Shown: positions 2,312-62,742 of the stretch, piece by piece | How positions within the stretch are numbered: position 1 is the stretch's first letter | Layout of the letters: every line of letters starts with the position of its first letter | NCBI GenBank assembly: GCA_964571845.1 | Contig: CAZNDM010000062.1 | Location: 18,258 to 82,257 of the forward strand | Source of the DNA: an uncultured bacterium | Lineage (GTDB): Bacteria; Hydrothermota; Hydrothermia; B15-G9; WFZT01 | Reading direction: 5' to 3' | Length of the DNA: 64,000 bases | Program-made: the position numbers and the translations under genes | Notes under the pieces: model-generated | Database searches by the model: none | The model's input: the letters and a program-made list of their open reading frames with translations, nothing else | Told to the model about the DNA's origin: nothing

Positions 2312-4304
2312 GTAATTCTTCTGTTAAGTGCGAATAAAGCATTCTGTAAAGCCTGAAATCTTTCATTATTCTCCTGACATAATTCCGTGTTTCCCGAAAT
2401 GGAATAAACTCAACAAATAGCTGGGGATCTGCTGAGATTCCCATGCTCCTGTACTTCTTTATCCATCTATCTACTCTCTTTTCACCGGCATTATAGGCAG
2501 CAAGAGCAAAAACAGGGTTACCCTGATATCTCTCCAGCAGGGAATTGAGATACTTAACACCAATCTCTATGTTGAAGTAAGGATCAAAGAGTTCATCCAG
2601 CTTAACTTTTCTACCTGCAATTCTTGAGGCTGTTGACGGCATCAACTGTGCTATACCCACAGCTCCCGCTGGTGACACTGCCATGTGGTTAAAATGACTC
2701 TCCTCTCTCAATAAAGAGACAAAGAGAAATGGCTCATCTGTCCTGCCCTCGATAAAAGACCAGTAGGCAAGAGGGAAACCAAAAATCAAGCTTTTCCTGC
2801 CCTGCTCGAGCTTCCTGTATCTCTTGAAAATCTCAACTGTGAGATTATCAGCACCTGTAAGATAGGCAAATTCTACACACTCCTGAAGTTCACACTTCTT
2901 CAAAGATCTCAAGGCGTAGTTATTGAGTCCGAGTAATGTGAAAATGTGGTATCTGTCCCAGTAAGAATCTGGCTTATCGAGAAACTTCCCATTCTTCTCT
3001 ATCATCGGGATGAGAATTGAATCCACATCGGGCAACTTCTTCTCTCCATTGGTTATCCATGTAAAGTAAGAAAACGGATGAGCCTTTATGAGCGAATCCC
3101 TGTAGGCTGAAACCCCAGAAATTTTGTAAAGCCAGAACAATGCCTGAGCACGCGCAAAGGAATCCCTTGTTTTTAAAGATCTTTTGAAGAAATCAATTGC
3201 TCCCCTCTTCTCCCCATAAATCATGTATGTCAGTCCCATACGCATCAAATACTCAGGAGAACCTATACCATGAGGAATTTTTCTCTTCCACTTTTTAAAA
3301 ACGTCCGGATGGTTTATAAAAATGAATGAAAGCTCGTACGACGCATAGGCGCGGTATTTCCCGCTACCTTTAATAACTCTCAAAAATAGGGGCACTGCTT
3401 TTGACAGTTTCCTTTTCTTCTCGTATGAAAGTGCGACATAGTAAAGGAGTGAATCGGGGACAAGCCCCTTTCTGTACAGTTTTAGTAACTTTGAATAATA
3501 CCCCGCCCTGTAATAGGCTATTGTCAGATAATGATACTTCTTCGATAGCTTCGACTTTCTCAGATACTTTATTGCTCTCCTGTATTTTCCTCTGTAAAAA
3601 GCGCACAATCCCTTGTAAAAAGTATATCTTCCGCTGACATACCTGATCACTTTATAAGCAAATGGACTCTTGTAATAACGAGTTACAAGTCTCACAGCTA
3701 TACTGTCAGCTGCGGATTTCTGCTTTTTGAACCTTTTTATGTTGTGTAAGTAATAAAGAGCCTCTGCTCTATTTGCATAAATTTTCAATCTTCGTCTGTA
3801 AGTCCTAAAGATTTTTTCGTAGTCAGCATAATCTCCATCAGAGTACATAAACCGCAAAGCCTGCATTATTGCCCTTTCAACAAAGGGACTCTCAGGATAC
3901 CTCTTTGCAAGGATTTTTAAATCAACCGGTATGTAAGTCTTTCTCTGGAGATCAATATTTTTATTGATCCTCAGGTAAAGCAAGAAATCTCCCAGATCAG
4001 GGTATCTTGTGAGCCCTCTTTCGACAAGCTCATAAAAAACACTGTCACCAGCAGGGGTATTGTAGGCAGAGTAGAGAAACGCAAAAAATTCCGGTTTTTT
4101 AAGAGATCCGGTTCTTGTAGAAAAATACTGATAGAGGATCTCGTACTCCCTCATCCTGAGGAGTGATACAGTGAAGTAGAAACGCTCGTCAACATTGGAA
4201 ATAGAGGAGGAATTGTAAATTGCAGGCCAGTTTCTCGTCAGAATAGCAGTGGAAAGGGAAGCTTTAAGACTGAGAGCGGCGAAAAGAAAAAAAATCATAT
4301 TCAA
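2292..4304 (-). CDS. Soluble lytic murein transglycosylase (Slt family) with an N-terminal superhelical repeat region
   Basis: The C-terminal SLT domain contains ESHFNHMAVSPAGAVGIAQLMPSTA...AYNAGEKRV, the catalytic Glu-Ser and AYNAG motifs. There is an N-terminal signal peptide and long Tyr/Arg-rich helical repeats. Confidence 0.8.
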   Translation of the reverse strand: MNMIFFLFAALSLKASLSTAILTRNWPAIYNSSSISNVDERFYFTVSLLRMREYEILYQYFSTRTGSLKKPEFFAFLYSAYNTPAGDSVFYELVERGLTRYPDLGDFLLYLRINKNIDLQRKTYIPVDLKILAKRYPESPFVERAIMQALRFMYSDGDYADYEKIFRTYRRRLKIYANRAEALYYLHNIKRFKKQKSAADSIAVRLVTRYYKSPFAYKVIRYVSGRYTFYKGLCAFYRGKYRRAIKYLRKSKLSKKYHYLTIAYYRAGYYSKLLKLYRKGLVPDSLLYYVALSYEKKRKLSKAVPLFLRVIKGSGKYRAYASYELSFIFINHPDVFKKWKRKIPHGIGSPEYLMRMGLTYMIYGEKRGAIDFFKRSLKTRDSFARAQALFWLYKISGVSAYRDSLIKAHPFSYFTWITNGEKKLPDVDSILIPMIEKNGKFLDKPDSYWDRYHIFTLLGLNNYALRSLKKCELQECVEFAYLTGADNLTVEIFKRYRKLEQGRKSLIFGFPLAYWSFIEGRTDEPFLFVSLLREESHFNHMAVSPAGAVGIAQLMPSTASRIAGRKVKLDELFDPYFNIEIGVKYLNSLLERYQGNPVFALAAYNAGEKRVDRWIKKYRSMGISADPQLFVEFIPFRETRNYVRRIMKDFRLYRMLYSHLTEELLDRKAS

Positions 4305-4471: not shown

Positions 4472-5998
4472 ATGGAAAAGGTTATCATTCTTGACTTCGG
4501 ATCTCAGTACACCCAGCTTATCGCCAGAAGGGTTAGAGAGTGGCATGTTTACTCCGAAATAGTCCCTTACAACATCACTCCACAAACCATCGGAGATGAT
4601 GTGATCGCTATTATCCTGAGTGGAGGACCTGGTAGTGTGTACGATGAAAATCCGTACCTGCCAGATCCCGGGATATTTAAATTGAATAAACCCATACTTG
4701 GAATCTGCTACGGATTACAGATCATAACCCATCTCCTTGGTGGTAAGGTTGCTCCTGCAAAGGAAAAAGAGTATGGCCTTGCGACACTTACCGTAAAAGG
4801 CAGGTCTCCTTTATTCGAAAACCTCCCTGAAAAATTTAAGGTATGGATGAGTCATGGAGACAAAGTCCTGAGTATTCCACACGGTTTCAAAATTATAGGC
4901 TCCACGGAAAATTCAGAATATGCCGCTATTGCCCACGAGGATTTAAAAATTTATGGCCTCCAATTTCACCCTGAAGTCGCTCACACAGAATATGGTAGTG
5001 AGATCATAAAAAATTTCTTATTCAGAATTGCAAAAGCACGGGGCGAATGGAAACTCGAAAACTTTGCCGAAACCCTGATAAATCAGATCCAGGAGCAGGT
5101 TGATGGTCATGGCGTCATTCTCGCACTCTCAGGGGGTGTTGATTCCTCTGTCGTCGCCAGACTCCTTGAAAAGTCCGTCGGCGAAAGTTTCTATCCCATT
5201 TTTATTGACACCGGACTCCTGAAAATCGGTGAAAAGGAAAGAATCAAACGCCATTTTGGCCACTTAAAAAATTTAATAGTCGTTGATGCCGCCCGTGAGT
5301 TCCTTGAATCCCTGAAAGGTATCGAAGATCCCGAATCGAAAAGAAAGATCATAGGCGAAAAATTCATCGAAATCTTTACGAGGGAGTCTTTGAAATTGAA
5401 GGACAGAATCAGGTTCCTCGCTCAGGGAACCCTCTATCCGGATGTCATAGAATCAACACCTGTAGTTGGACCATCTGAGACCATTAAATCACACCATAAT
5501 GTGGGTGGACTCCCTGACTGGCTGCCTTTTGAACTTCTCGAACCTCTGAGGATGCTCTTTAAAGACGAGGTCAGACAGCTCGGACGAATCCTCGGAATGG
5601 ACGAAGAGCTCATAAAAAGACACCCCTTCCCCGGTCCGGGTTTTGCTATCAGAATTATCGGAAGTGTAACTGAAGAAAGACTGAAACTTGTGAAAACCGC
5701 TGATCTGATTATTGAGGAAGAGATAAAAAAAGCCGGCCTGTACGACGAGCTCTGGCAGATCTTTCCTGTACTCCTCCCTATCAAAACAGTGGGGGTTATG
5801 GGGGATAAAAGAACTTACGAATATGTTATTGCAATCAGGGCTGTTACAAGTGTGGACGGAATGACAGCGGATTGGGCAAAACTTCCTTATGAAGTCCTTG
5901 AGAAAATTTCCTCAAGGATTGTCAACGAAATCGTGGGGATAAACAGAGTTGTGTACGACATAACATCCAAGCCACCTGCCACCATTGAATGGGAATAG
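4472..5998 (+). CDS. guaA: GMP synthase (glutamine-hydrolysing)
   Basis: The N-terminus has a class-I glutamine amidotransferase domain ([18 protein letters not shown]; GICYGLQ). It is followed by the ATP-pyrophosphatase SGGVDSSV P-loop and the conserved GuaA C-terminus ...ATIEWE. Confidence 0.95.
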
Positions 5999-6475: not shown

Positions 6476-6510
6476 GGGGGCGGGGCGCGCGTTCCGCGCG
6501 CCCCGCCCCC
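6476..6510. terminator. GC-rich perfect palindrome hairpin (16-bp stem, 3-nt loop) between convergent genes, a probable bidirectional terminator
   Basis: GGGGGCGGGGCGCGCG-TTC-CGCGCGCCCCGCCCCC was read directly. It lies 6 bp after the stop of 6060..6470 (+) and 22 bp after the stop of the S8 protease gene (-). Confidence 0.6.
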
Positions 6511-6531: not shown

Positions 6532-9402
6532 CTATTTAACTATCATCAACCTCTGAATAGCTCTCGTCTCCCCAGCTCTAAATTCTACAAAGTAAACTCC
6601 AGCTTTCAATCCGCGTAAGTTCATGTCTATCGTGTGGGGGCCAGCCCCAAGTGTTCCCCTGAACACCTTTCTAACCGCTCTTCCACTGATATCGTACAGG
6701 CTGATCTCAACATCCTGCCTGCTCGCGAGCGTGAAGCTCAATGTGCTGAACCCTCTTGTTACATTGGGAGCCAGCTTCAAAGGCACAAATCCGGGCTGAA
6801 CCTGACTCTCCTCAACACTAACAAGGTAGGCATGGTAGGCTGAATCAACATTGGCGTAGTAAGCACCAAGAGATACGCCACCGACAATTGCAAACACAAC
6901 TGAATCTTCCTGGCCCGGTGCAAGGGAGAATGGTCCAGCTGAAACAACGACACTGTAATCGTTTGCTGATGTCTGGTTACCGTAGTGCAAAATTCCCGAC
7001 ATGAATTTCCATTCATTCTGGTCCGTCATTCCCGTGTCCGGATAGACATAGGTTGGGTTGGAGATGGTGCTTATATTTGCAACATTGTCCCTTGGATAGA
7101 GCAGGGTTATACCAACTGCGGGGCTGTAGTTCAGGGGCGTCATGAAAGCTGTGTACCTTGTAGTGTCAACAAAGGCGAAGTTCTGGGATGGATCCTGCCC
7201 TATATCAAAGTCAATAAACTGAGCTGCATAGAGGTTATCAAGTGATGATGTGCCGTTGTTTCTGAAAACATACTTCATTATCACAAAATCATTTATCCCA
7301 TCCCTTGAAAATCCGTAGGCTATCTGCTCGACAGTAACATTCTGTGGATTCGGGTGCCCGGAATCTGACATCATACCCCAGATCTCCTGATTCCCGACTG
7401 CTGGTGGAATGACATAGTAGAGCCTTCCAAGAGGATCCGTTGTATAAACCCAGTCTCCATCCTCTGTTCCGTGTTCATACCAGTTGTCAACGAGATATGT
7501 GGAGTCATTACCAAAGGCGAGTGAGCCATAGAAGAGTGTGTTGGATCCGTTCTTTGGATAAATAAACCCATTCCCCATCAGCTGATCTGAAGACATAAAG
7601 CCGATGCCGCCGTTGTCAGTTACTGTAAGGATGCAGTTCCCGGTGTCAATATTGGCAAAGTCGAATCTTGGAGTACCAATTTCAAGTGAAAATTCGAGGT
7701 CGGTGGTGTAAGAAGTTGAAGTTTCGATGTGGAGGACAAAGTTGACAGTGGTCCCGGATGGAGTTGAAGGTGAAACATAGAGGGTGAACGGATCTGCCTG
7801 GTTGCTCACTGTATCGTTGCGAGCAATATCGCCGAAGTTACCCACAGAGTCAAGGATTGTAACATCCTTTGAGCCGAGTCTTAGATAACCAACAGCCGAA
7901 TGGGCAGTAGAGTCAGCAAGATTGGCAAGGTAAACGATTACATTTGCAGTGTCTCCCGGATCCAGTCTTCCGTTGTTATCGTCCACGACAACATTGATCA
8001 GAGCCAGATACGGCTGATCCGGAGCCGGAGTTAGCTCTATTGCAGCAAGCACATCCAGACGGCCCCAGCCGTAGTCATTGTTCGGGAATGTGTATCCGGG
8101 CACATGGTAAGCGGAATTTGTAAGTATGGAATAAATCTGATAGTAATCGAGAACAGGGTTCTTGGACAGGATAAGTGCAATGGCGCCTGTAACATGAGGG
8201 GCTGACATGGATGTTCCGTCCCATGTCTGGTAACCGCCTCCGGGAACTGATGAGTAAATACTTTGACCTGGTGCCACTATGTCCGGTTTTATGAAATTCC
8301 AATCGGGTCTGCTCCAGTAGGTCTGATCATTCCAGGGATAAGCATTGGGAGCGGGTCCCCTCTGAGAAAAGCTCGTCACGGCATCTGTTCTCGTGGTTGC
8401 TCCCACACCGATTACAGTGGGATAGTTACCCGGTGAACTCGCCCTTATATGCGGGCAGTTCATGTCATAGTTTCCAATTGAGAAAACGGGGATAAGTCCA
8501 AGTGACCTTATTGTCCAGATTACATTCCAGTATGTGGTTGACATCGAGTCACATGAACCCCAGGAATTGTTTATAACCCTGAGGTTGACACCTGAGTCAA
8601 CCACGAGACTGCCGAACCACTGGAAAGATCTTGTAATCCAGCTTGAGTAACCGCCAGACGATGTAAACGCCTTGGCAGCCACAAACATCGCACCCGGGGC
8701 AACTCCTATGTCCCTTGTGAATGGTCCGTAACCGTCTCCTCCCAGTATGGTTCCCATGGTGTGGGTACCGTGACCATTGTCATCGTAAGGAGCGGGAAAA
8801 TTCCCATGTGTGGCATCATAAAAGTGTCCTGCAAACTTTCCAGAAAGCGCAGGATGTGATGTATCCACTCCGGTGTCGAGATTTGCAACTATTATCCCCT
8901 GCCCTGTGTAACCCAGCCTCCAGACACTATCCGCATTTATCTTACTTATGTTCCAATAAACAACTTTTGGATCAGCTGATTGGGTGTTACGGGCAGGTAA
9001 AGCTGTTAAAAACGCCTTACTGTCAAGCTCAATCCTCGCAACATCCTCTCTTTCCGCAAGTCTGTAAATAACATCCTTAGTAGCTTTGACATAAACAGCA
9101 TTGATAATCCAGAAACCCTCTTTTTCCATGACTCTGTCTGCATTCGCATCAAGGAATTCGAGAATCGGCCTCTGGGACTCCTTTGCGAGACTTCTGAGGT
9201 ACTCTACCTCAGTCTTCCTATCTCCCTTAAACATCTTTTCCAGATCCTGATAGGATGGCTGCTCTGCGGGGTACACCATCACTCTAATAAACTCGTCGCT
9301 GCCAGCTTTTTCCAGGACCTTCTGCAGATCCTCTGTAATCGTTGCCTTTGCGTTTAGTACTGTGAACATCAGCAAAGACAACACGACCATCAACTTCTTC
9401 AT
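6532..9402 (-). CDS. Secreted subtilisin-like serine protease (peptidase S8) with an I9 propeptide and a T9SS C-terminal sorting domain
   Basis: There is a signal peptide. The S8 catalytic triad motifs are present: DTGVDTSHPAL (Asp), HGTHTMGTILGG (His) and GTSMSAPHVTGAIALI (Ser). The C-terminus GVYFVEFRAGETRAIQRLMIVK is typical of a T9SS type-A CTD. Confidence 0.85.
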   Translation of the reverse strand: MKKLMVVLSLLMFTVLNAKATITEDLQKVLEKAGSDEFIRVMVYPAEQPSYQDLEKMFKGDRKTEVEYLRSLAKESQRPILEFLDANADRVMEKEGFWIINAVYVKATKDVIYRLAEREDVARIELDSKAFLTALPARNTQSADPKVVYWNISKINADSVWRLGYTGQGIIVANLDTGVDTSHPALSGKFAGHFYDATHGNFPAPYDDNGHGTHTMGTILGGDGYGPFTRDIGVAPGAMFVAAKAFTSSGGYSSWITRSFQWFGSLVVDSGVNLRVINNSWGSCDSMSTTYWNVIWTIRSLGLIPVFSIGNYDMNCPHIRASSPGNYPTVIGVGATTRTDAVTSFSQRGPAPNAYPWNDQTYWSRPDWNFIKPDIVAPGQSIYSSVPGGGYQTWDGTSMSAPHVTGAIALILSKNPVLDYYQIYSILTNSAYHVPGYTFPNNDYGWGRLDVLAAIELTPAPDQPYLALINVVVDDNNGRLDPGDTANVIVYLANLADSTAHSAVGYLRLGSKDVTILDSVGNFGDIARNDTVSNQADPFTLYVSPSTPSGTTVNFVLHIETSTSYTTDLEFSLEIGTPRFDFANIDTGNCILTVTDNGGIGFMSSDQLMGNGFIYPKNGSNTLFYGSLAFGNDSTYLVDNWYEHGTEDGDWVYTTDPLGRLYYVIPPAVGNQEIWGMMSDSGHPNPQNVTVEQIAYGFSRDGINDFVIMKYVFRNNGTSSLDNLYAAQFIDFDIGQDPSQNFAFVDTTRYTAFMTPLNYSPAVGITLLYPRDNVANISTISNPTYVYPDTGMTDQNEWKFMSGILHYGNQTSANDYSVVVSAGPFSLAPGQEDSVVFAIVGGVSLGAYYANVDSAYHAYLVSVEESQVQPGFVPLKLAPNVTRGFSTLSFTLASRQDVEISLYDISGRAVRKVFRGTLGAGPHTIDMNLRGLKAGVYFVEFRAGETRAIQRLMIVK

Positions 9403-10359: not shown

Positions 10360-10381
10360 GCGGAATTTTTTGGTAATTAGA

Positions 10382-10414
10382 GGGGCGGAGCGCCGGGAAC
10401 CGGCGCTCCGCCCC
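10382..10414. terminator. GC-rich palindrome hairpin (15-bp stem, GAA loop) downstream of the acyl-CoA dehydrogenase gene
   Basis: GGGGCGGAGCGCCGG-GAA-CCGGCGCTCCGCCCC lies 8 bp after the stop of 10422..11567 (-). Confidence 0.55.
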
Positions 10415-10421
10415 TCACACC

Positions 10422-20761: not shown

Positions 20762-21075
20762 TTTCAAGCCTCCCTGTAAAATAACCCGTCCAAAGTATAA
20801 TTCAACCAAATGAACCATTCAATCGTGTTAAATACATATATCAGGGACAGAAACCCACCCATCCATCAACCACACTAAAATGCTCTTGAAAAAAGATAGC
20901 ACTCCGGATCAGCCACTTCAAAAAAGTCTGTGGCTATACGACACGAATATGACATTAGTGTCGAAAGAAACCGCTAAAAATTGTTCTGCATAAAACGGGA
21001 AGTGATCGTTTTTTCCTCCGTATTGAAGAGCTTTGATGGCTGCATTTTTGTCCCTGCAAAGTGTAAGACTGTTAG

Positions 21076-21645
21076 GAAATATTTTACCGGTGACCATTTT
21101 CCCTTTAACTTTGCGGAAAAAATCTTTTTCTCTCTTATGCTTGCGTAAGCCCATTTCGTAGCAAAAATCACACTGGCTCCTTTCCCGCTTTGTGAGAGGA
21201 ATCACTTCAAACTTCCACTCCTGCTTGCAGGAGGAACCACTACTAATCTTCTTTCCAGCAAGGCGAGAGGGATCATTTCCAATTTCCCCTCCCACACGGC
21301 GGGAGTGATCACTTCCAATCTCCCCTCCCGCACGGCGGGAGAGACCTTTCCAATCTCCCCTCCCGCACGGCGGGAGGGGACAAAGGGGAGGGCAAAAATA
21401 CCCTTCATTACTCTTCCAGTCAATTTTGTTCATTCTGCCCCCTCCTTAATCCTCCCCGACAAAGTGGGGGGAGGAGATTGATGAGCGTCCCCCACAAAGT
21501 GTTACCGTGTCCTGTGGGGGAGGGAGTCATTGGGAGCCCACAAGACATCCATTTTGTAGGGAAGGAATAAGTGTCCTCCCACAGTACCAAACACTCTGGG
21601 GAAGGAAGTTAAAAAATCACATGCTCCTTTTACCCTAAAGGATTT
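21076..21645 (+). repeat. Copy A of a three-copy composite intergenic repeat family (see copies B and C), forward orientation
   Basis: The 5' arm GAAATATTTTACCGG...CTTTGCGGAAAAAATCTTTTTCTCTCTTATGCTTGCG is shared with copies B and C. The internal array is three 35-bp units TTCCAATCTCCCCTCCCGCACGGCGGGAG(N6) at 21276-21382. The shared core is AAGGGGAGGGCAAAA...CTTCCAGYCAAT...CCTCCCCNACAAAGTGGG...AGATTGATGAG...CAGTACCAAA...AGTTAAAAAATCA..CTTTTACCCTAAAGGA. Confidence 0.6.
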
Positions 21646-21939
21646 CTCCGAAGATTCTCCTGCGAAGTATTAGCACCGGGAGGAAAATGTAGGTGGACCT
21701 TCCCGATAGGAGTAGGAATTGTGGAGATAGTATCATCACTTTAACCTCCCTCTATGACGCTAAAGGGTGTAGAAAGAATTAATCTTGAATCTCGGTGGAA
21801 ACGACACCAGAGAACCATGTGTAATGGAATCTCCGTTGCATGAATTGAAACAGTTGAAAAGAATGGGATTTGGGAACATGTGGGGGCATATGGATGTTTT
21901 TCCGATGCCCATTGGGCATTGTGGAATTTGGGAACATGT

Positions 21940-21970
21940 GGGGGCGGGACCGCTTCGCGGTCCCGCCCCC
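21940..21970. terminator. GC-rich palindrome hairpin (14-bp stem) at the 3' end of the minus-strand OMP gene
   Basis: GGGGGCGGGACCGC-TTC-GCGGTCCCGCCCCC sits 8 bp beyond the stop of 21978..22601 (-). Confidence 0.55.
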
Positions 21971-21977
21971 ACCCTCT

Positions 21978-28625: not shown

Positions 28626-28670
28626 AAAGGTGGGTGGGGCGCGCGCGAAGCGCGCGCCCCACCCACCTTT
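28626..28670. terminator. GC-rich palindrome hairpin (~20-bp stem) flanked by an A-run and a T-run, a terminator of the large S8 protease gene
   Basis: AAAGGTGGGTGGGGCGCGCG-CGAAG-CGCGCGCCCCACCCACCTTT lies 5 bp after the stop of 28675..32169 (-). Confidence 0.6.
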
Positions 28671-33043: not shown

Positions 33044-33194
33044 GGTGGTTAATTTTAATGCCAAATAAATAATGGTCAACCATCCCGGACATTTGGAAAA
33101 TATCAAACCACTTCTTCTCAAAAAACTTTTTATCGAACAGCCTCACCGTCCTGTGACACGAGCATTTGTAGAATTTTATTCTGCGAGGAATCTA

Positions 33195-41529: not shown

Positions 41530-41797
41530 AGGGCACGGTTCAAAAATTTAAGAAGGTGGTACACGAAAAATTCATGTCCACACCTGCGGGTGTTGGAATA
41601 ATTTTTTACATTGTAGAAAGATTCTCTTTCTGCTTGCAAGAAGATCCATCTATTCCCCAACTTTCAATTCATGAGAGAAAATCGAGGGAAGTTATCTTCT
41701 CCACAGTGTTAACGCACTGTGGAGAGAGAGTCGAAAAATACATTCCTTCTATTTCCGAAGCTTTTTCGAATAACCCTATGAACTCCTCTGGATGTTT

Positions 41798-42270
41798 GAA
41801 AAATATTTTACCAGTAGTTGCTTTCTCGTCACTTTGTGGAAAAACTCCTTTTTCTCCCTTATTTTTGCGAGGGGATCCACCCACAACCTCCCCCCATTTG
41901 TGAAAATCCACCTACAACCTTCCCTCCCATTTGTGAGATTTCACCTACAACCTCCCGCTCTGCGGGGGTACCCACAACTCCCCTCCCGCCTTGCGGGAGG
42001 GGATTAAGGGGAGGGCAAAAGGACCACTAACTTCTCTTCCAGCCAATCCTCCCCTACAAAGTGGGAAATAAGATTGAAGAGGATCCTCCGCCCACTTATC
42101 GAAGGCTCAAGAAATCTCGCAACAGTTCCGGAGGAGATTGGTAAGTGTTCCCTACTCAGTGCTGACTTACCCCGGGTAAGTATCCTTTCCCAGAGTACCA
42201 AATGCTCAGGAGTGAGTTAAAAAGTCATATCCCCTTTTATACCCTAAAGGAATTTTTTCGAACACCCTCT
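41798..42270 (+). repeat. Copy B of the composite intergenic repeat family, forward orientation
   Basis: The 5' arm GAAAAATATTTTACCAGTAG...CTTTGTGGAAAAACTCCTTTTTCTCCCTTATTTTTGCG is shared with the other copies. The internal array is four ~31-bp units CCACCYACAAC(C)TYCCC... at 41887-42013. The conserved 3' arm runs through ...AGTTAAAAAGTCATATCCCCTTTTATACCCTAAAGGAATTTTTTCGAACACC. Confidence 0.6.
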
Positions 42271-42279
42271 ATGTACTTC

Positions 42280-42308
42280 TTGACCTCACTCTGTCATGAA
42301 TGTATAAT
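42280..42308 (+). promoter_or_regulatory. Candidate sigma-70-type promoter for argC-argB-argG, immediately 3' of repeat copy B
   Basis: TTGACC, a 17-nt spacer and TATAAT (ttgacctcactctgtcatgaatgtataat) lie about 190 nt upstream of the argC ATG. Confidence 0.35.
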
Positions 42309-42497
42309 TATTCACCGAAAATGAAAGAATATAATTTCAACAAGCCTCATAAAAGCCTGAACTTCCCTTCGGGCATTACTGTTAGATTCCCTTATAGAAG
42401 ACCTTTCTAAGCCCGGGGTGTCTTCTTCACCCTGGAGGAGATGTAGAATGATGGCGTGGTATATTTTTACAAAATTTTTAAAATCGGAGGAAAAAGG

Positions 42498-45454: not shown

Positions 45455-45493
45455 GTGGGGGCGAGGCGCGCTTTTAGCGCGCCTCGCCCCCAC
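45455..45493. terminator. GC-rich palindrome hairpin (18-bp stem, TTT loop) between convergent argG and pilin genes
   Basis: GTGGGGGCGAGGCGCGCT-TTT-AGCGCGCCTCGCCCCCAC lies 17 bp after the argG stop and 15 bp after the pilin-gene stop. Confidence 0.6.
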
Positions 45494-46068: not shown

Positions 46069-46404
46069 TCCTATCAATTATAGCCATCTGGTTTCATTAA
46101 AGCAAGACTATAGATTTACATTTAAGACGCCCAAATCAGTCGTATTTAAAGGTAATCCTGAAATTGTCATCCCTTAATCTTTTAGCATAGAAAATAATTC
46201 AAAACCTGAAATTTGTTTGTATAGTGAAAATTTTCAAAAGTCGTGTTTATAGGTTAACTTACAGGCTAAATCCATCTCGTGGACTTTTTATTTTCCCTGT
46301 GATTTTTTGAGAACAAGGTTGGCGAGAATTTCGGATTCAGGTAGATTAAAAGCCTGTTTTTTGTTGATTTATGGAGGTTTTTGAACTATAATTTAAACCT
46401 CGTG

Positions 46405-47428
46405 ATGCAGATTTCCCGAATATTTCTCCATAACTTCAGGAATTACGAACGACGGACTTTTGAGTTTGACCCCGGAATTAATGTTATTGTCGGACCTAAC
46501 GGTATAGGGAAGACGAATCTTCTTGAGAGTATCGCATATCTTTCAATGCCCAGGTCATTCAGGGGTGTCAGAGATCAGGAGCTCATTAAATGGGGGAAAA
46601 ATGGTTTCGATCTCAAGGGAGTCGTAGAGACCTCCTATTCGTCACATCTTCTTGAAGTACACTATCACGGTGGCAGGAAAAATTATTTGATCGACGGTAA
46701 GAAGATAGAAACTTTTGCAGATATTTTTAAAATCTTCGTAACACTTGTTGTGACAGCCAAGGATCAGGAGATAATTGACGGACCTCCGGAGGAAAGGAGG
46801 AGAAACATTGATTATTTTGGTAGTTTCTACGATCCTGCCTATTACCAACTGCTCCTCGATTACAGACGGGCATTAAAGGAGAAAAATGCACTTTTAAAAA
46901 AGAATCCACCAATGGAGCATGTTATCCCGTGGAATTTAAAGTTGTATGAGCTCGCAGAGGAGATCGTATCTTCGAGGGAGAGATTTATCAAAATGATTGA
47001 AAACATTTTGAACATAAAGATCGTGGAGCTTGGTCTCAACGGGAAGATAGAGTTTATTTACGAGCCATCAATTGAAGGGCTTAAGGAGTATTCAAGGGAA
47101 CTCTTTGAAGAGGAGAAGAGGGCCGGGCACTCACTGGCTGGTCCTCATAGGGATAGGATAAATCTAAACTTTATGGGGTACCCAGTGAATGTGTCAGCGT
47201 CTGAAGGCCAAAAAAGGCTCATCCTCCTGGGACTTTTCCTGACGGAGAGAGAGATTCTGGGAGACAGGATAGGAGAACTACCGGTATTGATACTCGATGA
47301 GCCTTTGAGCGTGCTGGGTGAAGACAAAATCTCCATGCTCATATCCAGTTTGAGTGGTCAGGTCTTCATTTCATCGGTAAGGTATCTGGAAGGATTCAAG
47401 GCTATTGAGCCGGGAGTGGTAGAAATTT

Positions 47429-47442
<14 letters not shown>
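46405..47442 (+). CDS. recF: DNA replication and repair protein RecF
   Basis: MQISRIFLHNFRNYE...GINVIVGPNGIGKTNLLESIAYL is the Walker A motif. The SMC-like signature and Walker B ...LPVLILDEP follow. Confidence 0.85.
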
Positions 47443-50825
<3,383 letters not shown>

Positions 50826-52744: not shown

Positions 52745-53165
52745 CGCGATGGTGTTTGAAAAACATTTCTCCGGGGTAAAAGGGATATTTAATTTTTTAA
52801 CTTTCTCCCCCCGGGCGTTCGGTACTGAAGGGACACTCATCGTACTCTTTTCCACAGGATACATCAACCCTGTGTGGGAGACACTCATCAATCTTCTCCC
52901 CACTTTGTGGGGAGGATTGACTGGAAGAGAAGTAAGTGGTCTTTTTGCCCTCCCCTCAATCCTCCCGCAATGCGGGAGGGGAGTTGTGGGTACTCCCGCA
53001 GAGCGGGAGATTGTAGGTGAAATCTCACAAACGGGCGGGAAGGTTGCAGGTGGATTTTCACAAATGGGGGGAGGTTGTGGGTCGATCTTCTCGCAAGCAT
53101 AAGGGAGAAAAAGAGAGTTTTTTCCGCAAAGTAAAGTGAAGTATCTACTGGCAAAATATTTTCGG
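52745..53165 (-). repeat. Copy C of the composite intergenic repeat family, inverted orientation
   Basis: The reverse complement matches copy B almost end to end (…CTTTGCGGAAAAAACTCTCTTTTTCTCCCTTATGCTTGCG / CCACCCACAACCTCCCCCCATTTGTGAAAAT… / …AAGGGGAGGGCAAAAAGACCAC…AGTTAAAAAATTAAATATCCCTTTTACCCC…TTTTTCAAACACC). The internal tandem units lie at 52961-53085. Confidence 0.6.
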
Positions 53166-53244
53166 ACATCCTCTTCTCTGACACTTGGCAATTGTAATGA
53201 AACCAAATATAATAAAGTGTTCATTATTTTAGAAGGAGGATGTC

Positions 53245-60531: not shown

Positions 60532-61377
60532 CTAAAATTCTATTTCCTCACCTACAAGCTCTGAAAGAAACCTTCTTAACTCCTCTTTGTTTTTGAATTC
60601 TATTGTTAGCTTGCTCTTACCTTTTGGGTTGAAGTTTACCCTCACCCTGTACTTGAGCCTGTCTGTCAGGAATTTTGAAATGATACGGGAAATTTCCAGA
60701 TCTTTTGAGTGTCTTTTCTCATCCTGACTTTTCTGCCTTTTAACAAGATCCTCCACCTGTCTGGCATTCAATCCCTTTTCAACGATGGCCTTTGCAATTT
60801 TTATCTGAGTTTCATCAGGTAAACCCACAAGTGGTCTTGCCTGCCCTTCGGTTATCTTCCCCTGGAGGATGAGATCCTGAACAAACTCGTGGAGCTGGAG
60901 CAATCTTAGAGTGTTGGCGACTGCAGATCTGCTTCTTCCGATCTTCTTAGCGATTTCATCCTGAGTCAGGCCAAATTTTTCTCGCAGGAGCTGATATCCC
61001 CGCGCGAGCTCAATGGGATTCAGGTCCTTCCTATCAAGGTTTTCCACAAGTGCAATTTCAAGTGCCCCGTTGTCGTCAATATCAATAACTCTTGCAGGAA
61101 TTCTGTCCAGTCCTGCTACTTTCGCTGCTCTCCATCTCCTTTCCCCCGCTATCAACTGGTACTTCCCATCGATTTTTCTCAGTATAACTGGTTGAAGTAC
61201 CCCTCTCTTTTTTATAGACTCTGCGAGTGACTGGATTTCCTCCTCCGAGAATGTAATTCTTGGTTGAAATGGACTCGGCTCTATTTCGTTAATATCAACA
61301 AGTATTATTTCTTCCGTGTTAACAATCTCATTTGATATTAGGGCGTCGAGCCCTCTACCCAGTACTTTCTTTCCCAT
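60532..61377 (-). CDS. parB: Chromosome partitioning protein ParB (Spo0J)
   Basis: The ParB box GERRWRAAKVAGL, the GRGLDALIS N-terminus and an HTH (…TQDEIAKKIGRSRSAVANTLRLL) are present. Confidence 0.9.
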   Translation of the reverse strand: MGKKVLGRGLDALISNEIVNTEEIILVDINEIEPSPFQPRITFSEEEIQSLAESIKKRGVLQPVILRKIDGKYQLIAGERRWRAAKVAGLDRIPARVIDIDDNGALEIALVENLDRKDLNPIELARGYQLLREKFGLTQDEIAKKIGRSRSAVANTLRLLQLHEFVQDLILQGKITEGQARPLVGLPDETQIKIAKAIVEKGLNARQVEDLVKRQKSQDEKRHSKDLEISRIISKFLTDRLKYRVRVNFNPKGKSKLTIEFKNKEELRRFLSELVGEEIEF

Positions 61378-62122
61378 TTAAAAACTCCTTTGCTAATTCG
61401 AGATAATCCCTGGCGCCCTGTGATGTGGGAGCATAGGCACCAACGGGGCGACCAAAACTCGGAGATTCCGCAATTCTGACACTTCTGTGGATCACACTCC
61501 TGTAAACTTTTTTATCAAAAAATCGCCTCACTTCCTGTTCAACCTGGCTCGACAGATTCAGCCTCCTGTCATACATGGTAAGGAGAAAACCTTCGATCTT
61601 CAGATCAGGGTTGTACGCCTGTTTAATCTTCTTGAGTGTCCTGAGGAGCTGACCGAGACCTTCGAGTGCATAGTATTCACATTGAACAGGTATGAGAACA
61701 CTCCTTGCAGCAGTAAGGGCAACAACTGTGAGAAGGCCGAGTGAAGGAGGAGTGTCTATAAAGACGAAACTATAACCCTCAAGATCTTTTAGTTTTTTCT
61801 TGAGAGTCAAATGCCAGTTCTCACGCTCCCTGAGCTCCACATCCGCGCCCACAAGATCCGTCGTGGATGGAACAAGGTACAGGTTTTCGTATGGAGTTTT
61901 GATGGTGGCTTCATCGATCGATACATCTGGATCTATAAGCACATCATAGATGGTTAACTCCGGTTTTTCAGTAATTCCCAGTCCACTTGTGGCGTTTGCC
62001 TGAGGATCAATATCAATGACGAGAACCCTTTCACCAAGTCCTGCAAGGTAGTAAGACAGGTTGATTGCTGTGGTCGTTTTTCCAACTCCACCCTTCTGGT
62101 TGGAAATGGAGACAATTTTCAT
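61355..62122 (-). CDS. parA: Chromosome partitioning ATPase ParA (Soj)
   Basis: MKIVSISNQKGGVGKTTTAINLS is the deviant Walker A motif. Met13 of the tracked ORF is used as the start. The gene overlaps parB. Confidence 0.9.
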   Translation of the reverse strand: MKIVSISNQKGGVGKTTTAINLSYYLAGLGERVLVIDIDPQANATSGLGITEKPELTIYDVLIDPDVSIDEATIKTPYENLYLVPSTTDLVGADVELRERENWHLTLKKKLKDLEGYSFVFIDTPPSLGLLTVVALTAARSVLIPVQCEYYALEGLGQLLRTLKKIKQAYNPDLKIEGFLLTMYDRRLNLSSQVEQEVRRFFDKKVYRSVIHRSVRIAESPSFGRPVGAYAPTSQGARDYLELAKEFLNGKESTG

Positions 62123-62154
62123 GGCAGGAATTATAAAGTGCACTATTTCCCTGT

Positions 62155-62742
62155 TCAACGGTTGATTGTTTCACGTGAAACAATCAGACAGGTATCCGCA
62201 TCAATAAAGGGGTTTCTCACTCTTCTGCTACATCCCTCATCTTTACTTGTTATGTAAATAAACTTACCCCCTGACTTCAAAATTCGCTCAGTTACATTAA
62301 AAATCCTCTCATACCCTGTACCCATGGAAACCACGGTATCAAATTTTTCATCAAGATCATCCCAAGACATGCACATAACCGTTACATTCTGCAATTTTAG
62401 AAGGGCAGAAATGTATTCGAGGAAAATACACTTTTTCCTGACTATCTCCACAAGTGTAAAGTCTTTCTCCGGAAGCACAATGGCGAGGGGGATCCCTGGA
62501 AATCCGCCGCCAGATCCAAGGTCAGCCACTCTCTTACCTTCAATTTCAGAAACGACGATAAGGGAATCGAATGTGAGGCCAAGAAGCCTCCTGTCATCAA
62601 TTCTCTTCGAGACAATTGTCGTCTTTTTTGACCATTTTTTCACCTCACTTAAAAAAGACTCCACCTTTGCGAGCTCATCCCTGCCCAGCTCCACGCCCTG
62701 TTTTCTGAGATAATGTCTCAGTTTTTCTATTGATGTTATCAT
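62155..62742 (-). CDS. rsmG: 16S rRNA (guanine527-N7)-methyltransferase
   Basis: The SAM motif LGSGGGFPGIPLAIV is present, the size is ~195 aa, and the gene lies upstream of parA as in the conserved rsmG-parA-parB arrangement. Confidence 0.85.
   Translation of the reverse strand: MITSIEKLRHYLRKQGVELGRDELAKVESFLSEVKKWSKKTTIVSKRIDDRRLLGLTFDSLIVVSEIEGKRVADLGSGGGFPGIPLAIVLPEKDFTLVEIVRKKCIFLEYISALLKLQNVTVMCMSWDDLDEKFDTVVSMGTGYERIFNVTERILKSGGKFIYITSKDEGCSRRVRNPFIDADTCLIVSRETINR

Follow-up and report, generated by a model that had tools for sequence, protein, structure and literature searches.

What are the three head-to-tail units of ~35 bp, each with a CTCCC(G/A)C-N3-GCGGGAG stem-loop, at positions 21276-21382 of the 64-kb stretch of DNA analyzed here (the window), and to what do they belong? 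A preliminary description had recognized these units and had regarded them as a hairpin-bearing module that was replaced or expanded within a mosaic element. We find that the arrays form the variable-length middle of a small non-coding repeat scattered between the genes of a WOR-3/Hydrothermota bacterium, and that the element belongs to a known kind of bacterial interspersed repeat rather than to a new system. The GyrB encoded in the window was closest to proteins from MAGs that carry the label candidate division WOR-3, Candidatus Hydrothermota, or Hydrothermales, and the window also encodes T9SS sorting domains. The recF-dciA-gyrB and parB-parA-gidB genes (46381-49608 and 60532-62742) lie within 15 kb, with dnaA and dnaN absent between them, and a replication origin may be located near this region.

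Hairpin units and their arrays

The units at 21276-21382 were built as (T)TTCCAAT(C/T)TCCCC followed by CTCCC(G/A)C-ACG-GCGGGAG and 5 to 7 nt, confirming both the three tandem hairpins and the unit sequences reported previously. Tandem Repeats Finder detected arrays at all three full copies of the element in the window: array A (21254-21376; period 36, 3.4 copies, 86% matches), array B (41875-41956; period 33, 2.6 copies), and array C (53003-53077; period 33, 2.3 copies). When up to two mismatches were allowed, CTCCCGC-N3-GCGGGAG occurred eight times in the 64-kb window compared with 0.04 times expected from shuffles, so that the tandem hairpin observation is real and far from chance. All but one of these occurrences fell within the arrays (A, 21289, 21325, and 21360; B, 41952 and 41983; C, 52962 and 52993).

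The array of copy A proved longer than the three units ascribed to it. It comprises about seven units, the similarity of which drops toward the 5' side, and its upstream units carry hairpins of other sequence (CTTATG/CGTAAG, TCCTTTC/GAGAGGA with one G-U pair, and CTCCTG/CAGGAG). Copies B and C hold four units each, in agreement with the preliminary description. The statement that the units always carry the hairpin is accurate for the arrays, each of which has it, but not for the individual units: in B and C the stem-loop is confined to units 3 and 4, units 1 and 2 having a degenerate CCC(A/G)TTTGTGA with poor pairing, and the first of the three 3' units of A reads CTCCCAC, which introduces an A-C mismatch into the stem. 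All units are in direct orientation with a period of 31 to 36 nt, and their stems start with CTCCC or TCCCC. The letters of the stems vary while pairing is retained (CTCCCGC/GCGGGAG, CTCCTG/CAGGAG, TCCCCCTT/AAGGGGGA, and CTCCCCAC/GTGGGGAG). Perfect GC-rich stems of at least 7 bp were 13 times denser within the elements than elsewhere (3.9 versus 0.29 per kb).

For comparison among copies, the unit boundaries were set at the recurring ...CAC punctuation. Position by position, the units of B and C were 90-100% identical, unit A7 was 71-74% identical to B4/C4, and unit A2 was 64-68% identical to B2/C2; units A5-A7 were 81-89% identical to one another. Judged by these sequence identities, the units of A and of B/C are diverged positional homologues, not swapped modules, and they go back to a single ancestral array that diverged, the 3'-most unit of A having been amplified later and recently. 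The earlier mosaic proposal thus stands with respect to expansion, to which divergence must be added, but not with respect to replacement, since the units are homologous.

The dispersed element and its variation among strains and species

The full element measures 0.45 to 0.6 kb, and the window holds three full copies (A, B, and C) together with one mini copy (B'), all of them intergenic (Table 1). Alignment of A, B, and C bore out the earlier statement that conserved arms of a repeated element flank the arrays. The order is an inverted end motif (approximately GGGTGTTYGAAAAAWATTTT) at both ends, a 5' arm (AAATATTTTRCCRGT...CTTTGYGGAAAAA...CTTATGCTTGCG), the array, a G-rich core, and a 3' arm. 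Each array unit (~31-36 bp) consists of a C-rich arm, a loop of 3 to 4 nt, and a G-rich arm, and the units follow one another head-to-tail. The alignment gave AGGGGAGGGCAAAA-N-CTCTTCCAG-N-CAAT for the invariant core, and the 3' arm contains further stem-loops (CCTCCCC-ACAAAGT-GGGG, GAGATTGATGAG, AGTACC, AGTTAAAAA, and CCCTTTTACCC). A three-copy nhmmer profile matched only A, B, and C in the window, apart from weak matches to both arms in B', which ends 14 nt upstream of copy B. The mini copy, the inverted-repeat-like termini, the presence or absence of elements between species, and the promoter-adjacent ends were absent from the preliminary description.

Table 1 Positions of the element copies, their parts, and neighboring features in the window
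Feature	Position	Strand	Remarks
Copy A, whole element (~595 bp)	21067..21661	+	Ends are degenerate terminal motif; from A/B/C alignment, nhmmer profile matches, and termini table
Array of copy A, about seven ~35-bp units	21149..21382	+	Last three (21276-21382) are the originally noted units
Most conserved core, AGGGGAGGGCAAAA...CTCTTCCAGTCAAT	21383..21425	+	Invariant in all three copies; with last hairpin arm makes four G-tracts
Mini copy B' (~190 bp)	41588..41775	+	Both terminal motifs, one 12-bp hairpin, tandem array absent; weak nhmmer matches to 5' and 3' arms
Copy B, whole element	41790..42267	+	3' end 12 nt upstream of argC promoter
Array of copy B, four units	41876..42003	+	Hairpins in units 3 and 4
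Copy C, whole element	52750..53171	-	5' end 13 nt upstream of aminotransferase promoter on opposite strand
Array of copy C, four units	52961..53085	-	Each unit 90-100% identical to its B counterpart
argC promoter, TTGACC-17-TATAAT (11/12)	42280..42308	+	Host sequence adjoining end of B; orthologous promoter in L013
Aminotransferase promoter, TTGGCA-17-TATAAT (11/12)	53185..53213	+	Host sequence adjoining end of C; present in L013, where element is absent
Solo terminal motif TTATCGAACAGCC, element absent	33130..33142	+	10 nt upstream of promoter-like site
Gene-end palindromes	6476-6510, 10380-10416, 21938-21972, 28626-28670, 45455-45493, 56674-56704		Gene ends

All copies occupy unusually long intergenic gaps. 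Copy A lies between a threonine dehydrogenase gene and an outer-membrane beta-barrel gene, B' and B between an M3 peptidase gene and argC, and C between a TRAM methyltransferase gene and an aminotransferase gene. In three other assemblies, short-read contigs are interrupted within the copies (Logan and JGI contigs end in A, B', and C), which is the behavior expected of a multi-copy repeat. The 14 kb past the window contained no further full copy and a single solo motif.

Several other sequence features were observed in and around the elements. The last hairpin arm and the invariant core together read GGGAGGGGA-yw-AAGGGGAGGG, giving four G-tracts with short loops (21370-21393, 41993-42016, and, weaker, 52945-52968 on the minus strand); by its sequence this stretch (GCGGGAGGGGACAAAGGGGAGGGC) would represent a G-quadruplex-type motif on the sense strand of the element. 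Between copy A and the outer-membrane protein (OMP) gene, the direct repeat GGGATTTGGGAACATGTGGGGGC occurs twice, 60 bp apart (21866-21888 and 21926-21948), and its second copy runs into a terminator-like palindrome. Gene ends in the window also carry a separate palindrome family (GGGGGCG...CGCCCCC), with GC-only stems of 14 to 21 bp and no T tail, the members of which are probably bidirectional terminators or REP-like repeats. In the sister species (L028), the palindrome that follows the OMP gene differs in its stem sequence, with its pairing intact.

Comparison with near-identical strains revealed a change in array length at locus A. One strain (L002, ENA ERZ27262694) matches the entire 1.2-kb spacer save for a 71-bp insertion in array A, which consists of two extra units with variants of their own (TTCTAATC... 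and ...CCCATTATCCCC...), so that the array has nine units versus seven in the window; these private variants argue against simple assembly duplication. A third assembly (L006) has three near-identical units at this locus, the last with a different loop. The expectation that unit number varies between strains was therefore borne out at locus A (three versus five near-identical units, a difference drawn from short-read metagenome assemblies), but not at B and C, which in the second strain keep four units and show point changes only. Variants in L008 affect the core of the element and disrupt a stem (CTCCAGC and GGGGAAGGC). The ENA contig that covers copy B differs from the window by ~6% over its final ~160 nt (L008 12440-12596, corresponding to window 42000-42157), compared with 0.4% over the preceding 470 nt; the changes include the "invariant" core and reflect either a contig end that is chimeric, having run into another copy, or true divergence between alleles.

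The sister species (L013 and L021; 96% GyrB identity to the window) differs in both the occupancy of loci and the sequence of the hairpins. Copy C is absent from L013 and L021, where the gap at locus C measures 90 bp. Upstream of argC, L013 carries an element of 320 bp (4832-5149). At sucD, L013 and L021 have an element of 135 bp (L013 17484-17617), where the window has a degenerate motif only, and the orthologue of locus A (the tdh-OMP spacer) holds an element of ~330 bp (L028, about 7560-7900). All of the sister-species elements use TCCCCCTT-N4-AAGGGGGA hairpins (CCCCCTT/AAGGGGG), not CTCCCGC-N3-GCGGGAG. A third species (L019, GCA_027053075.1) has more elements with related ends and CCCTCCCCCGC/GCGGGGGAGGG-type hairpins, and the same ends with other hairpins were thus seen in L013, L028, and L019. 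Species-specific hairpins at orthologous loci suggest either homogenization within genomes or repeated re-colonization.

Beyond these relatives the element was not encountered. Such elements were absent from 22 kb of L016 (79% GyrB identity). The core pattern GGGGAGGGCAAAA-N10-16-CTCTTCCAG had one match in 185,579 species genomes, a chance match inside secA, and in JGI metagenomes it matched only locus A of the same population plus two chance sites. Among viral contigs, a scan for the end motif returned two unrelated matches and a scan for the double-hairpin pattern returned none. Within the reach of these genome and JGI metagenome pattern scans, the element in this form is confined to a narrow lineage.

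Origin and possible roles of the element

The ends of the elements resemble inverted repeats. When read inward and aligned, 13 of 15 termini from three species share a GGGTGTTCGAAAAA(T)ATTTT-like sequence. Comparison of the 5' end with the reverse-complemented 3' end gave 12 to 15 identities out of 22 in six elements (B, B', C, two from L013, and one from L019), where random 22-mers average 5.6 identities and the probability of at least 13 is 0.0009. A repeat tool identified a 17-nt inverted repeat (88%) at the ends of the 320-bp L013 element upstream of argC, and the ends of copy A are decayed and barely recognizable. With a length of 190 to 600 bp and a non-coding sequence, the elements fit the range of miniature inverted-repeat elements (MITEs; 50-1000 bp without coding capacity); they possess terminal inverted repeats, degenerate in copy A, and they are dispersed, with insertion polymorphism among related genomes at sites that are not clean when empty. 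A closing RNA helix between the two ends was rejected, the end differences of copy C reading in the sequence as uncompensated C-A mismatches.

Several observations count against a MITE. No matching direct repeat indicative of target-site duplication was present at the ends of B, B', C, or the L013 elements, which is a weak negative as the copies may be old. We found no clean empty site; the "empty" locus C of L013 retains a TTTTTCGG-like remnant, and its flanks have diverged. An autonomous element with matching ends was not found in the DNA examined (window, flanks, and related contigs), and no transposase was present among the genes called in the window and in the adjoining 14 kb. The only transposase seen was IS630-like (L019 20507-21595), and this element was rejected as the parent because its ends (TTATTGACCTTTGC) are unrelated to those of the repeat. 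The poor ends of copy A, the small number of copies examined, and the fixed distance of 10 to 13 nt between the end motif and promoters (described below) also weigh against this reading.

Taken together, the explanation that we favor, with some reserve, is a MITE-like composite repeat that is non-coding and lineage-specific and encloses a minisatellite of stem-loop units, similar to BOX and BrickBuilt. Its repetition, inverted-repeat-like ends, non-coding nature, array-length polymorphism, presence or absence among genomes, and adjacency to promoters were observed directly. Unit number differs by copy (four, four, and seven), and the array with the most alike units is the one that changes length between strains; such changes would arise where near-identical units undergo replication slippage or recombine unequally. 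Whole elements may spread via transposition in trans or recombination between copies, and homogenization of copies within a genome would yield the species-specific hairpins at orthologous loci. Any effect on the host would likely be on transcription, in that stem-loops situated between the end of a transcription unit and the next promoter would fold in read-through RNA, and the terminal motif is placed where an upstream promoter element would act.

The relationship to promoters bears on other possible origins. The end motif TTTTCGAACACCC (up to two mismatches, read outward) was followed 10 to 13 nt on by a sigma-70-like promoter in 7 of 20 occurrences, compared with 0.8% of random positions. 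The motif-promoter stretches are located at 42255-42308, 53159-53213, and 33130-33180 in the window, 5136-5190 and 17605-17660 in L013, ~920 (minus strand) in L031, and 3171-3225 in L023. Five of the seven promoters agree with the consensus at 11 or 12 of 12 positions (in the window, those of argC and the aminotransferase gene; in L013, those of argC and sucD; and in L031, that of one gene). The -35 and -10 boxes are host sequence, and for sucD and the aminotransferase gene the promoter is conserved in the genome without an element at the site. Two of the seven occurrences, in the window (33130) and in L023 (3171), are solo motifs, and the motif before the L031 promoter (920) was also read as solo. 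An L019 element (2838-3324) has apparent outward promoter-like sites beyond both ends, the right one identified by scan and the left one by eye. The A/T-rich part of the end motif may resemble an UP element. The regularity of 10 to 13 nt is not predicted by random insertion; it could reflect selection for ends that serve as upstream promoter elements, insertion that is targeted, or a regulatory motif that is native.

If the motif were native, the elements would be regulatory cassettes that do not move, with the motif placed ~10-13 nt ahead of the -35 box and acting as an upstream promoter element or activator site, and the arrays acting as insulators or terminators that change length by slippage. 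Such cassettes would account for the spacing and strength of the promoters, the solo motifs, the outward sites of the L019 element, the UP-like composition, and the position of all three window copies between the end of one unit and the next promoter. They leave unexplained why an inverted pair of motifs surrounds a common internal architecture, and 13 of the 20 termini face no promoter (the 5' end of B, both ends of B', the 3' end of C, and the 5' ends in L013). Moreover, ~20 nt at the solo motif at 33130, flanking bases included, equal the 5' end of the sucD mini element of L013 with one mismatch (aligned termini, by eye), which is remnant-like rather than typical of a binding site. The real gene-end hairpins of this DNA are of a different and much longer family, and the units lack the features of intrinsic terminators, with no terminator-like sites on them and no T tails. 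Immobile cassettes are the main rival explanation, and we consider them unlikely. Of similarly low probability is a combination in which the elements are mobile insulator and upstream-promoter-element cassettes: the motif would have to sit 10 to 13 nt from the -35 box, insertions and solo remnants would be kept where they boost strong promoters, the array would block read-through from upstream, and copies would be homogenized within the genome. If true, this repeat family would be rewiring promoter architecture across a whole uncultured lineage. In the same region, the argC leader of ~190 nt between promoter and start codon (42309-42497; L013 5190-5380) is conserved in the sister species and includes a small stem-loop at 42355-42374; it had no Rfam match at E ≤ 10 and is a candidate regulatory leader.

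A multi-copy family of ~0.5-kb structured non-coding RNA genes, in which the stem-loops would be modular hairpins for binding proteins or ligands by analogy with sponge RNAs, appears improbable. Copy A folded better than shuffles (z = -4.5 for the plus strand and -3.8 for the minus strand), strongly conserved blocks lie between the hairpins, and double changes keep the pairing (e.g., CTCCTG/CAGGAG versus CTCCCG/CGGGAG), all of which would suit such RNAs; however, better folding of both strands is as expected for a string of palindromes. Rfam returned only tRNA-Gly at the gathering score and nothing meaningful even at E ≤ 10. The RNAalifold consensus of the 3' arms, drawn from three sequences only, had an unfavorable covariation term (+2.9) with almost all pairs invariant. 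A conserved promoter or terminator bounding the element was not found, the L008 variants disrupt a stem, the evidence from G-U versus A-C pairs for a preferred strand is mixed, and in the sister species the element is missing at locus C and other hairpins replace these elsewhere. A role of the hairpin as a specific protein-binding site has no support, and the earlier proposal that products of adjacent small ORFs bind it lacks a basis because those ORFs are not genes.

Translation of the arrays does produce the GGEIG and PPICE ORFs that had been called artefactual, and that judgment was upheld. ORFs of 70 to 171 amino acids span the arrays, with the GGEIG ORF antisense in A and the PPICE ORF sense in B, but frames and strands differ among copies, B is broken into short ORFs, and a search of the copy C ORF against 5.8 billion proteins recovered nothing but this locus in another assembly. 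Among the genes called over 78 kb (window plus flanks), none encoded a cas, reverse-transcriptase, or transposase domain. A degenerate CRISPR-like array or a real repeat-protein gene is therefore scarcely credible despite the regularly spaced GC hairpins of CRISPR-repeat-like composition and the length of the ORFs: unique spacers are absent, as the preliminary description had held, the stretches that separate the hairpins belonging to the repeat unit, and the coding alternative fails on unconserved frames and the lack of homologues.

Significance and comparison with known bacterial repeats

For annotation, these results mean that three large "empty" intergenic regions and several spurious ORFs called by gene callers are repeat elements, which also account for the breaks of short-read assemblies at these loci in this population. 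We know of no interspersed repeats described in WOR-3/Hydrothermota, and the element adds to this candidate division a repeat of the BOX/BrickBuilt type with an internal variable-number array. The array at locus A could serve as a strain marker. Of potentially greater importance are the coupling of the end motif to strong promoters and the presence, at orthologous loci, of hairpins particular to each species; if upheld, both would bear on how small repeats shape promoter regions and on homogenization within genomes.

The element shares with REP/BIME sequences, Neisseria Correia elements, and NIMEs the clustering of short GC-rich intergenic palindromes and mosaic modules, and such repeats can affect termination, mRNA stability, and promoters. 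REPs differ in having a GTAG or CGTC tag, a largely inverted pairing of units, and a RAYT transposase, whereas the units here are direct with a period of 31 to 36 nt, carry no GTAG/CGTC tag, and are accompanied by no RAYT gene (Y1 transposase) among the annotated genes seen. Correia elements differ in their size (about 100-150 bp), 26-bp ends, and TA duplications.

The closest analogues are two composite repeats with internal arrays. Pneumococcal BOX has the structure boxA-boxB(n)-boxC, in which the number of boxB modules varies between strains, more so in larger arrays, and the effect on downstream genes can be stimulatory for boxA and boxC and inhibitory for boxB (Croucher et al. 2011, PMC3049150). 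Like BOX, the present element is an intergenic composite with conserved 5' and 3' modules, bearing inverted-repeat ends, around a tandem module (~35-45 bp) the number of which differs by copy and strain, and it has a tight predicted fold if transcribed. Unlike BOX, to which it has no sequence relationship (WOR-3 versus Firmicutes), it is longer (0.45-0.6 kb), its units are GC stem-loops, its end motif lies at a fixed distance from host promoters, and no candidate parent IS was found here. BrickBuilt, a MITE of Porphyromonas gingivalis, has an internal minisatellite in which a 23-nt unit is present in 1 to 22.8 copies (Klein et al. 2015, PMC4596501); it shares its ends with known ISPg elements (IS5 family), and it carries promoter activity (PMC4596501). 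Its unit is shorter than the 31- to 36-nt hairpin units of the present element, for which no matching IS is known, and the word "hairpin" is not used for it in the main text of that report. In both, a leader and a tail that bear small inverted repeats at their ends enclose spacer-free repeats of variable number, and both are always intergenic; many BrickBuilt copies likewise have degenerate ends and inconsistent target duplications, and its host is from the same FCB superphylum. BOX and BrickBuilt both affect neighboring promoters, and the element described here has the arrangement that typifies them: conserved end modules around an array that varies by locus (4, 4, and 7 units) and by strain (7 versus 9).
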